A stretch of DNA of 64,000 nucleotides from Escherichia coli (GTDB lineage: Bacteria; Pseudomonadota; Gammaproteobacteria; Enterobacterales; Enterobacteriaceae). Under the pieces are notes generated by a model. That model was given only the letters and a program-made list of their open reading frames with translations, was not told the DNA's origin and ran no database searches. This document shows, piece by piece, positions 29,646-31,276 of this stretch (positions within the stretch are counted from its first letter, which is position 1; the number at the start of each line of letters is the position of its first letter). The position numbers and the translations under genes are program-made. The stretch is taken from assembly GCF_024298765.1 (NCBI RefSeq), contig NZ_CP101212.1, one strand, 5' to 3'.

Positions 29646-30503
29646 TCAGGGGGAAGCTGTGGCCAGCCGGCTGTAATTACGGTTACGTGACAGAATCATG
29701 CGCTCTTTCACACGACGCTCCACTTCGCGTTTTACCGCCTCACGATTGGCAGTGAAGCGCCCTTCCGAGATTTCACGCGTCAGCTGCCGTTTCACCAGGG
29801 TGACGATATCCTGACGTTCCCTGTTCGCATCACGACGCGCACGGGCACGCTTTATTCCACGGGACTTAAGCTCTGTCTGGTAACTGCGGAAACGCTCACG
29901 CACAAAACGCCAGGCTTTCGCTATCAGTTCATCCATACCCAGGGTATCCAGCCCCTGCTTTTTGCGCTGTCTGTTTTCCCATTCAACACGACTGCGGCGC
30001 GCAGCAACCACTGCATCCTCAGACACATCAAGGGCGGCAAATAACGCCGGTGTGAACGTGATATCGGTCGGAATGTAGCACCCGATAAGCGGATCATATT
30101 CCGTCTGGTAGGTAATCAGTCCCAGCTCTGCAAGGAACGTCAAGGCTCGGGAGGCCCGGGTGATGGAGAGTTTTCCGGCAGCAGACTCCGTCGCCAGTCC
30201 GCACTCAATGGCCAGCGTAGTGATGGAGCACTGGACGCGGTTGGCCAGCGGGTCATAGTGAAAACACAGCCCCTGCAGCAGCGCATCAATAGCCCGGCGA
30301 CGCAGTACCGGTGGCATGCGCCGACGCAGTCCCTTCGAACGGGCATGTGCCACATGAATGGCGAAATCAAAACGGGAGGTGAAGCCCACCGCCTTTTCCA
30401 TCAGTTTTTCGCAGAACTTCAGCGTTCCGGCACCTTCACGGGGTGTGAACACCGGATTCGGATTTTTAACCTGTGAATAGTATTTTTGAAGGAGATCAGC
30501 CAT
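29646..30503 (-). CDS. repA1: IncFII replication initiator RepA1
   Basis: 285 aa from [31 protein letters not shown]...; RBS GGAGGGGGA upstream; matches the R100/R1 RepA1 family as recalled. Confidence 0.92.
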
Positions 30504-30978
30504 GTCCCCCTCCAACACTATTCCCCCTCCTACGGGCGGTAACTAGCTCGTCTGGGCCGACACGTAAAGTTTCGAACATATCTGGTCTGAACCAGATGGT
30601 TCCTCCATCAAAAGCGATGAGATGAAGATCATTATCAAGAGTTTTGAGGGCTCTCCAAACACGAGTGTATGAACCTCCACTACAAACTGAAAGCTCTTTA
30701 ACAGATAAGTTAACTTTGTTCGTATCAGGGATGTAGTGTGCGCACATTACTTGTACGAGGGAAACATAAAAACTAACCATCGACGCGCTGATTTTATTTT
30801 TACGTTTGCCATGCGCTATTGCAAGCAAACCTCTGATGAAGATCAGATGCTTGAAGGAGTCAAAATGAGCCCTTTTCTGGAGAAGGCTGCAAAACGGGTG
30901 AGGATACTTGCTGGAATCAATGTGAAGATCTGATTCAATCCCACCCGCTATTACTGAATGTGTTTCATGATTAGCCAC
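30496..30978 (-). pseudogene. Truncated divergent repA paralog (repA'), stop overlapping the repA1 start
   Basis: 160 codons from a GTG directly after tap; collinear with RepA1 residues about 1-172 at roughly 30-35 percent identity (FC..L..K.A; CAHYIPDTNKV vs [11 protein letters not shown]; SYTRVWRALKTL vs [12 protein letters not shown]; [25 protein letters not shown] vs [25 protein letters not shown]); TGA overlaps the repA1 ATG (ATGGCTGA). Confidence 0.6.
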
Positions 30979-31045
30979 ACCATCCTGCACTTACAATGCA
31001 CAGAAGGAGTGAGCACAGAAAGAAGTCTTGAACTTTTCCGGGCAT
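30971..31045 (-). CDS. tap: Tap/RepA6-like leader peptide (24 aa)
   Basis: [24 protein letters not shown]; its stop overlaps the GTG start of repA' as expected for tap-repA coupling. Confidence 0.6.
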
Positions 31046-31160
31046 ATAACTATACTCCCCGCATAGCTGAATTGTTGGCTATGCGGTTTTATGGGGCCCC
31101 GGTAATCTTTCTAGTCGCCAAACTTGAAGAAGATTATCGGGGTTTTCGCTTTTCTGGCTC
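31046..31160 (+). ncRNA. copA: Predicted CopA-type antisense RNA region (coordinates approximate)
   Basis: Expected antisense to the repA leader between copB and tap; plus-strand hairpins with U-tracts at 31059-31091 and about 31098-31150; boundaries not resolved. Confidence 0.25.
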
Positions 31161-31276
31161 CTGTAAATCCACATCAGAACCAGTTCCCTGCCACCTTACG
31201 GCGTGGCCAGCCACAAAATTCCTTAAACGATCAGCAATCTACCACTCACTCCTGAGATAAGCAAGAATGTGAATAT

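Follow-up and report, generated by a model that had tools for sequence, protein, structure and literature searches.

A 64,000-nucleotide (nt) stretch of Escherichia coli DNA (contig NZ_CP101212.1; hereafter the window, whose coordinates are used throughout) carries on its minus strand a plasmid replication control region in which a 160-codon open reading frame (ORF), here also called repA', lies between the leader peptide gene tap and the initiator gene repA1. The replicon of R1 and R100 is the textbook example of antisense-RNA copy-number control and consists of copB, CopA/CopT, tap, repA1, and oriR, with translation of repA coupled to that of tap. The copB gene (repA2; 31277-31534, minus strand) encodes the 85-amino acid (aa) transcriptional repressor of the rep operon and was identified with model NF010256 (132.9 bits; cut-off of 87). 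The gene for the CopA antisense RNA is located at 31063-31151 on the plus strand and provides a full-length match to Rfam RF00042 (93.6 bits; gathering score of 60). The complement of CopA in the rep mRNA, upstream of tap, is the CopT target. A promoter-like TTGAAC-17-TATACT sequence was found by a consensus scan at 31028-31056 (plus strand), just upstream of the CopA gene. The 24-codon tap gene (30971-31045, minus strand) was identified with TIGR03475 (59.4 bits; cut-off of 35), and its TAA stop overlaps the GTG start of the 160-codon ORF in GTGGCTAA. The ORF extends over 30496-30978 on the minus strand, from the GTG at 30978 to the TGA at 30498-30496, and is a paralogue of the N-terminal domain of RepA with a winged-helix core at residues ~57-145. 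The repA1 gene (29646-30503, minus strand) encodes a full-length 285-aa initiator of the IncFII type (TIGR03474, 580 bits; cut-off of 447), which is 95% identical to RepA1 of R100 in amino acid sequence and 92% identical at the nucleotide level. The start region of repA1, ATGGCTGA, holds both the repA1 ATG and the TGA stop of the 160-codon ORF. A strong Shine-Dalgarno sequence, GGAGG(G), appears 5-8 nt upstream of this ATG. The elements and both overlaps described in the first-pass annotation were all found, at the positions given there.

The alignment of the window with R100 consists of two matching blocks that overlap on the R100 start motif. Relative to R100, the ORF has thus been inserted precisely where repA translation starts, and the start motif occurs twice (GTGGCTAATC ... 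ATGGCTGATC). The tap/ORF overlap, GTGGCTAA, has the same register as the tap/repA overlap of R100, GTGACTGA, and the homology to R100 restarts at the second base of the repA1 ATG. When 29400-32400 was searched with the Rfam and NCBIfam models, one CopA and one tap were matched and no second copy of either was found. From the single CopA and tap and from the point at which the R100 homology restarts, it follows that repA1 has no tap or CopT of its own, as had been proposed.

The product of the 160-codon ORF was compared with RepA proteins using BLASTP. It aligns with the adjacent RepA1 at 33% identity over 98 aa (ORF residues 73-150, RepA1 residues 74-170; E of 1e-8) and with other 285-aa RepA proteins at 26-32% identity over 142-152 residues (28-150 and 29-170, respectively), the values being 30-32% over 148 aa for related RepA1 proteins. 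The E values of these alignments are 1e-10 to 1e-6. No similarity to RepA is detectable by BLASTP in the first ~27 residues of the ORF. The collinearity reported initially, with RepA1 residues 1-172, is thus correct for residues ~29-170 and slightly generous at the N-terminus. The TIGR03474 model provides a collinear score of 17 bits for the 160-aa product (E = 0.002), below the family cut-off of 447. No Pfam match to it was obtained even at E = 10, the threshold for PF02387 not being reached, and weak or faint precomputed PF02387 matches appear on some of its homologues. The alignments support the initial proposal that the 160-codon ORF is a diverged homologue of the N-terminal half of RepA and not a duplicate of the adjacent repA1. 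A recent duplication of repA1 is ruled out by the 33% identity and by the GC content of the ORF, which is ~10 points lower than that of repA1 in every lineage.

The predicted fold of the ORF product is a winged helix that covers the globular domain of RepA1 (residues ~25-157), and its predicted secondary structure corresponds to that of RepA1 residues 25-170, element for element. The ORF ends early in the RepA1 helix at 162-182, ~10 residues past the AARR motif, and the C-terminal helical region of RepA1 (residues ~175-285) is missing from it. A 182-aa protein, WP_250264804.1, is designated in RefSeq as "RepA leader peptide Tap" and consists of tap fused in frame to the entire 160-aa ORF (MPGKVQ...AGWC-ANHETH...). 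The fusion may be a natural variant produced by an indel, or else it is an artefact of annotation.

Homologues of the ORF product that are 66-84% identical to the query are found in Salmonella salamae, Citrobacter, Lelliottia, Klebsiella, and metagenomes, and nearly all of them are 156-163 aa in length. Seven diverged loci, among which the pairwise amino acid identity of the ORF is 64-88%, were combined with the window to provide a comparison set of eight lineages. In all seven diverged loci the order is (copB) tap, ORF, 285-aa repA. The ORF starts at the tap stop with GTG or TTG, both weak, and ends within the start of repA, which itself begins with ATG. The end of the ORF at the repA start is CATGACTGA in five of these loci and GCATGA in the two that encode 198/199-aa variants. 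In the motif ATGACTGA a stop is present in both alternative frames. No stop codon or frameshift is found in the ORF in any of the eight lineages, for which the chance under random substitution is ~1.3e-4 (star-tree approximation). Coding on another frame or strand is ruled out, the frame of the ORF alone being open in all lineages.

The pairwise ratio of nonsynonymous to synonymous substitution (dN/dS, or omega) for the ORF is 0.23-0.62. Four independent pairs taken together give an omega of 0.40 (P = 2.7e-10 for the test of neutrality), with values of 0.32 in the winged-helix core (P = 8.7e-9) and 0.56 in the N-terminal 55 codons. For repA1, omega is 0.04-0.26. Fifty-nine residues are invariant among 14 ORF sequences, chiefly those of the recognition helix and wing of the winged helix-turn-helix. 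At the nucleotide level, the ORF block is the most conserved stretch of the replicon (82-90% mean pairwise identity, compared with 61-79% for repA1 and 45-59% for most of copB). The ORF product is under purifying selection, and the ORF is neither a decaying remnant nor a pseudogene. Its earlier description as a remnant is set aside, given the P value and the complete winged-helix domain.

The same measurements bear on the possibility that the ORF is the 5' half of a displaced repA, held open as a passive leader that serves only to keep repA1 coupled to tap and CopA, and whose amino acid sequence is irrelevant. A constraint on length alone predicts a dN/dS of ~1. The ORF has 0.40 over its whole length and 0.32 in the core (P of ~1e-9 to 1e-10), and a second family of short ORFs, described below, has an omega of 0.20. 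The invariant residues fall in the recognition helix and wing, and a complete globular domain is kept in all of the short ORFs. A passive leader is thus unlikely, although it accords with the geometry of the coupling, with an insertion point that coincides with the start of repA, with the lower GC content of the ORF, with the mosaic nature of the region (the N-terminal piece of the 199-aa variants weakly resembles another RepA class), and with a natural deletion hybrid in which segments of the ORF and RepA1 behave as collinear paralogues.

The arrangement is shared among many IncF plasmids. The 901-bp junction region is found at 100% identity in at least 30 records (all of those among the matches listed), including pAPEC-O1-ColBM, pVM01, pChi7122-1, and pVir68, and at least 80% of it is covered in 483 PLSDB records. 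The ORF was detected in 528 PLSDB records using tblastn and in 525 of 5,426 complete E. coli genomes (~10%) using megablast, and the layout is at least 99% conserved in ~525 of these genomes. The canonical tap/repA junction of the R100 type is present in ~4,650 PLSDB records, compared with ~530 for the layout with the ORF. A misassembly or a chimera unique to one record is ruled out, since hundreds of complete plasmids, independent of one another and from a range of hosts and countries, have the same sequence.

Carriers of the ORF layout were typed as IncFIC by MOB-suite. The RepFIC remnant of the F plasmid is 96.6% identical to the window over 998 nt, from copB through CopA, tap, and the first ~91 codons of the ORF, up to the end of Tn1000. 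In the standard F sequence (NC_002483.1, 3917-4190) Tn1000 thus breaks the 160-codon ORF at approximately codon 91, and repA1 was not found in the first 20 kb of this record, the part that was searched. The F plasmid of strain NCM3722 (NZ_CP011496.1, 37940-39272) is without Tn1000 and contains a complete copB-tap-ORF-repA array. From the intact F plasmid of NCM3722, the F remnant that extends up to Tn1000, the IncFIC typing, and the prevalence, the copB-tap-ORF-repA1 order is the native architecture of RepFIC and not, as the first-pass annotation had suggested, a peculiar chimera of one plasmid. Saadi et al. are said to have described, in 1987, a RepFIC "repA1" that is ~40% similar to RepA1 of RepFIIA and is interrupted by Tn1000 in F. 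Because Tn1000 lies inside the ORF in F, and the ORF and repA are both intact in NCM3722, the classical "repA1" that is cut by Tn1000 seems to be the short 160-codon ORF rather than the 285-aa initiator, and the label is likely a historical error.

The arrangement is widespread, and sequence databases have contained it for a long time. The ORF is labelled "hypothetical protein" in five of six listed E. coli genome records, and the source names listed for its protein clusters are the same apart from a "putative replication protein RepA" and a mislabelled "Tap" entry. The first-pass annotation knew of no description of the layout; a "repFIIA-repFIC" replicon is mentioned in passing in the paper on pAPEC-1 (PMC2626276). 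In the searchable literature (RepFIC, IncFIC, Tn1000, and the protein accessions), no description was found of the ORF as a conserved, selected, and coupled gene for a RepA domain, and none of the parallel two-cistron layouts in other IncFII-like replicons.

The RNA structures at the two junctions were predicted by folding, with RNAfold for the tap/ORF junction. A hairpin inside tap (30983-31005, minus strand; CUCCUUCUGUGC...GUGCAGGAUGG) pairs the AGGA Shine-Dalgarno sequence of the 160-codon ORF and is the same hairpin as that at the tap/repA junction of R100. It appears to correspond to the inhibitory structure that Blomberg et al. (1994) reportedly described for R1. A second predicted hairpin (30475-30523, minus strand) contains the repA1 Shine-Dalgarno sequence (GGAGGGGG), the AUG, and the UGA of the ORF, and its 3' arm lies within repA1 codons 3-9. 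The calculated stability is -21.3 kcal/mol (z = -4.12), with none of 200 shuffled sequences as stable. All eight loci contain the inner stem of this hairpin, GGAGG(G)/(U)CUCCUUC, and the overlaps at both junctions are kept in the eight diverged lineages. A conserved frameshift fusion of the ORF with RepA1 is ruled out, since the frame relation varies among lineages (8-nt versus 4-nt overlap).

These features can be compared with what would be expected if the two genes were independent within one operon, the ORF encoding a separate small regulator and repA1 using its own strong Shine-Dalgarno sequence, with CopA control either weak or exerted via effects on the mRNA. The strong GGAGG(G) sequence 5-8 nt before the repA1 ATG accords with such an arrangement, as does the weakness of the hairpin in some lineages (z of about -1 to -2). 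The stop/start overlaps, however, are kept in every lineage, including the two loci in which the register is different and the ORF still ends in the start motif, and the repA1 Shine-Dalgarno sequence and AUG lie within the predicted hairpin. No internal promoter-like site was found within the ORF on the rep strand using a simple consensus scan, which is weak evidence. In an IncFII-type replicon such as those of R1 and R100, RepA1 synthesis freed from CopA should lead to runaway replication. We regard independence of the two genes as quite improbable.

The preferred reading, to which we assign a probability of roughly 0.55, is that this RepFIC-type IncFII replicon operates a CopA-controlled relay from tap through the ORF to repA1, and that the ORF additionally makes a stand-alone winged-helix protein. 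In the proposed mechanism, CopA RNA would pair with CopT and stop the translation of tap. When tap is translated, the ribosome would end at GTGGCTAA and reinitiate at the weak GTG or TTG of the ORF, whose Shine-Dalgarno sequence would otherwise be sequestered by the hairpin inside tap, in the manner of R1 and R100. The ribosome that translates the ORF would then open the second hairpin, which is predicted to mask the repA1 Shine-Dalgarno sequence and AUG, stop at the UGA within AUGGCUGA, and reinitiate on repA1. The synthesis of RepA1 would be kept under the control of CopA via two couplings in series. The ORF product would be a folded winged-helix domain from the N-terminus of RepA that lacks the long C-terminal helices. 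Its synthesis would keep a constant ratio to that of RepA1, and it probably modulates initiation through the same origin or through RepA1 itself. The relay coupling suggested in the first-pass annotation is retained to the extent that the geometry fits, the overlaps are kept in eight lineages, and the repA1 Shine-Dalgarno sequence and AUG lie in a predicted hairpin. What is abandoned is the role of the ORF as a passive 160-codon leader, in view of the omega of 0.40, the complete winged-helix domain, and the highest nucleotide conservation in the replicon.

Several points weigh against the relay and its protein product. The anatomy, its conservation, the purifying selection, and the predicted fold and hairpins are results of the analysis, whereas translation of the ORF, the dependence of repA1 on it, and any activity of its protein are inferred. 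The strong GGAGG Shine-Dalgarno sequence of repA1 could permit initiation alone. The repA1 hairpin is weak in some loci (z of -1.0 to -2.2), and nearly all of its pairs are invariant, so that covariation speaks neither for nor against it. The AlphaFold2 model of the ORF product has a mean predicted local distance difference test (pLDDT) score of 66 and was obtained from a shallow alignment. The dN/dS values were calculated using NG86, an approximate method, and an omega of 0.3-0.6 indicates only moderate constraint. The synonymous divergence (dS) of the ORF between lineages is 0.18-0.64, compared with 0.5-2.2 for repA1, and is two- to five-fold lower than that of its repA1 and copB neighbours. 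A dS this low could reflect constraint at the nucleotide level or recent horizontal spread, and not long-term protein function. Because the dS of the ORF is far below that of repA1, the data suggest either that recombination in the conserved flanks has carried the ORF block from one replicon to another or that the block is subject to an additional nucleotide-level constraint. Finally, a search for carriers in which this layout is the sole replicon yielded none among the four E. coli carriers whose typing was inspected, all of which also contain IncFIB or IncFIA.

The region downstream of repA1 is interrupted in the window. An ISEc22 element of the IS66 family (27074-29528, minus strand) separates repA1 from oriR and is inserted ~117 nt beyond the stop codon of repA1. 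Its limits were obtained from the collinearity with pAPEC-O1-ColBM, which breaks at 29529 and resumes at 27073, and from the annotation of the identical record NZ_CP129273.1. This insertion is specific to the plasmid lineage of the window. The repA1-ISEc22 junction is covered by only one of the PLSDB records listed (NZ_CP129273.1). A 148-nt fragment of the repA1-oriR interval (26926-27073, minus strand) is left, flanked by ISEc22 and an IS1. The rest of the oriR/repA4 region is found at 17229-17829 (minus strand), where it was identified by BLASTN with the pAPEC-O1-ColBM locus (L001, 4403-5002; 91.5% identity), and has been moved by an IS1-associated insertion of ~9.1 kb. This insertion carries transposase genes of the Tn3 and IS66 families (17229-26925 interval). 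With the limits of the minimal oriR taken from R1, an oriR a short distance after repA is not intact in the window and is intact in pAPEC-O1-ColBM. In R1, RepA1 acts in cis on the nearby origin. Because oriR is split by insertion sequence (IS) elements and RepA1 is cis-acting, the copy in the window is probably not the working replicon of the plasmid.

The state of this copy raises the broader alternative that the entire arrangement is a disabled RepFII/FIC relic in plasmids that replicate from RepFIB or RepFIA. Such a relic would fit with the splitting of oriR in the window by ISEc22 and the IS1-associated insertion, with the multiple replicons in all four E. coli carriers whose typing was inspected, with the Tn1000 that cuts the standard F copy, and with one plasmid, without an annotated repA1, in which the locus lies beside an IS26. 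The ORFs and junctions are intact, however, across genera at a dS of up to 0.64; purifying selection acts on the ORF and on repA1 (omega of 0.04-0.26 for the latter); and the layout is conserved at 99% or more in ~525 E. coli genomes. A defunct replicon is, on this evidence, very unlikely as a general explanation. The RepFIC replicon of P307 was reportedly found by Saadi et al. (1984/1987) to be an autonomous basic replicon.

To look for a full-length RepA relative of the ORF, 1.84 billion representative proteins were searched exhaustively with a profile, and no such relative was obtained at E <= 1e-3. A full-length parent was also absent from a word-indexed search of 5.8 billion proteins, from tblastn of PLSDB, and from the PDB sequences. 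Apart from the ORF family and fragments of it, the profile search matched only two long proteins rich in repeats and a set of further short proteins (176-241 aa). The "truncated" status of the ORF is therefore deduced without a full-length member of its lineage having been found, and its origin in a replicon swap is plausible and would be old. In a neighbour-joining tree the ORF family forms a clade with 100% bootstrap support and the full-length 285-aa RepA proteins form one with 93%. The monophyly of the short ORFs has 6% support, and the deep nodes have 15-40%.

A natural in-frame hybrid RepA of 276 aa (GCA_902845595.1 and GCA_902849875.1; 3001-3831 in both loci, L018 and L019) consists of ORF residues 1-146 followed by RepA1 from residue ~156 to the end. 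It arose by a deletion of ~490 bp, equivalent to window positions ~30533-30044, at the microhomology TT[A/G]CCGCCC, and leaves one rep gene after tap. The 276-aa member of the cluster is ruled out as the full-length parent, being a secondary deletion hybrid with RepA1. The 198/199-aa variants of the ORF (L006, 2501-3100; L007, 529-1125) carry a 40-residue N-terminal extension, for which a weak collinear similarity to the N-terminus of the 339-aa RepA class is detected (E of 1e-4 in a small search). The extension and the GCATGA register point to further mosaicism at this site.

Short ORFs of 183-192 aa that correspond to the N-terminal part of RepA are found in other IncFII-like replicons. In all four of the short-protein contexts that were examined, the next gene downstream encodes a full-length 337-339-aa RepA of the IncFII superfamily, which the short ORF overlaps or abuts, and a short leader peptide precedes the short ORF. 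The leader was read directly in two of the four (L010 and L013), and the other two (L011 and L014) have a closely similar upstream sequence. Relatives of the 183-aa family, which accompanies the 337-339-aa RepA, are present at 60-80% identity in 468 PLSDB records, and the two records of this type that were opened (NZ_CP061833.1 and NZ_CP019175.1) are annotated with two adjacent repA genes. The omega of the 183-aa family is 0.20, and its dS is below that of the downstream RepA, as in the 160-aa family. All of the short ORFs stop 10-19 residues past the AAR(R/H/L/Q) motif, just beyond the globular domain. The 183-aa and 160-aa families resemble each other in their last ~25 nt (AATAGTG..GGA.GG.G..ATG).

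It is conceivable, and is offered here as a tentative proposal that we consider somewhat doubtful, that the short RepA N-terminal proteins (the 160-aa family, the 183-aa family of Klebsiella and Salmonella, and the 176-241-aa relatives) are an unrecognised class of replicon-encoded regulators, each a free-standing winged-helix version of the DNA-binding domain of the initiator, made in obligatory translational series with the initiator and in a fixed ratio to it, and acting on oriR or RepA. If so, such a regulator might, for instance, act as a competitor, take part in mixed oligomers, or serve in incompatibility as a weapon against plasmids with a related initiator. The class would then add a protein-level layer to the copy-number control of IncFII plasmids, which is usually described as CopA and CopB alone.

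In E. coli and Klebsiella, virulence and resistance genes are carried mainly by IncF plasmids. Approximately one in ten complete E. coli genomes, as well as the ancestral form of F, contains this selected and unnamed gene amid the copy-number control circuit. If the relay operates, the output of RepA1 would hinge on two termination-reinitiation steps, and mutations in a "hypothetical" gene would alter the copy number. If the ORF protein is active, it would be a new participant in replication control, incompatibility, and replicon typing.

Other features of the window were identified on either side of the replicon. A post-segregational killing locus of the hok/sok type (srnB-like) is found directly upstream of copB (31818-32129 and 31955-32113, minus strand). 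The sok RNA matches RF01794 with 90.2 bits, and a Hok/Gef ORF is annotated there in homologous plasmids. A 286-aa ORF at 33659-34519 (minus strand) matches the NCBIfam model for UilS, of the quorum-quenching N-acyl-homoserine lactonases, with 504 bits (cut-off of 400), and in pAPEC-O1-ColBM the apparent homologue carries no annotation beyond "alpha/beta hydrolase". A salmochelin-like siderophore cluster extends over 3189-12747 and includes a 1,261-aa ABC exporter (4366-8151) and a receptor of the FepA/IroN type (10570-12747). A DAHP synthase gene and the gene for TraI are located at 13613-14647 and 35344-40635, respectively. The siderophore cluster, DAHP synthase, and TraI are consistent with a virulence plasmid of the ColV/ColBM type.

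Among the closest known systems is the RepFIIA replicon of R1 and R100 (IncFII). With R100, copB, CopA, tap, the hairpin within tap, and the tap stop/start overlap of the window are collinear at 80% nucleotide identity. The window differs in having the 160-codon ORF at the repA initiation site, so that repA1 is two couplings away from tap. Direct coupling of tap to repA, as in the IncFII-type replicon, is not found here, and any coupling must pass through the ORF. It also differs in that the repA1 Shine-Dalgarno sequence is predicted to be sequestered by another hairpin, the one whose 3' arm is within repA1 codons 3-9. No structural difference was found from the RepFIC replicon of F and P307, IncFIC(FII) in replicon typing, and the replicon of the window appears to be RepFIC.

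The replicons of Klebsiella and Salmonella with two "repA" genes (183 aa and 337-339 aa) share with the window the presence of copB and tap, a short ORF for the N-terminal part of RepA, a full-length RepA of another lineage, and an 8-nt stop/start overlap. Their short ORF, however, is 43-46% identical to the canonical 285-aa RepA, compared with 26-33% for the ORF of the window, and the downstream initiator belongs to the 339-aa class, apparently IncI-gamma/K1-like in MOB-suite. The 160-aa and 183-aa families are ~29% identical to each other. In the IncI and IncB plasmids, translation of the initiator gene repZ depends on an upstream ORF, repY, that is under antisense RNA control, and the window resembles these systems in that the initiator is reached via an antisense-controlled upstream ORF. 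The IncI/IncB leaders are ~25-30 codons long and have no folded product, whereas the second upstream ORF of the window is 160 codons long and encodes a conserved domain.

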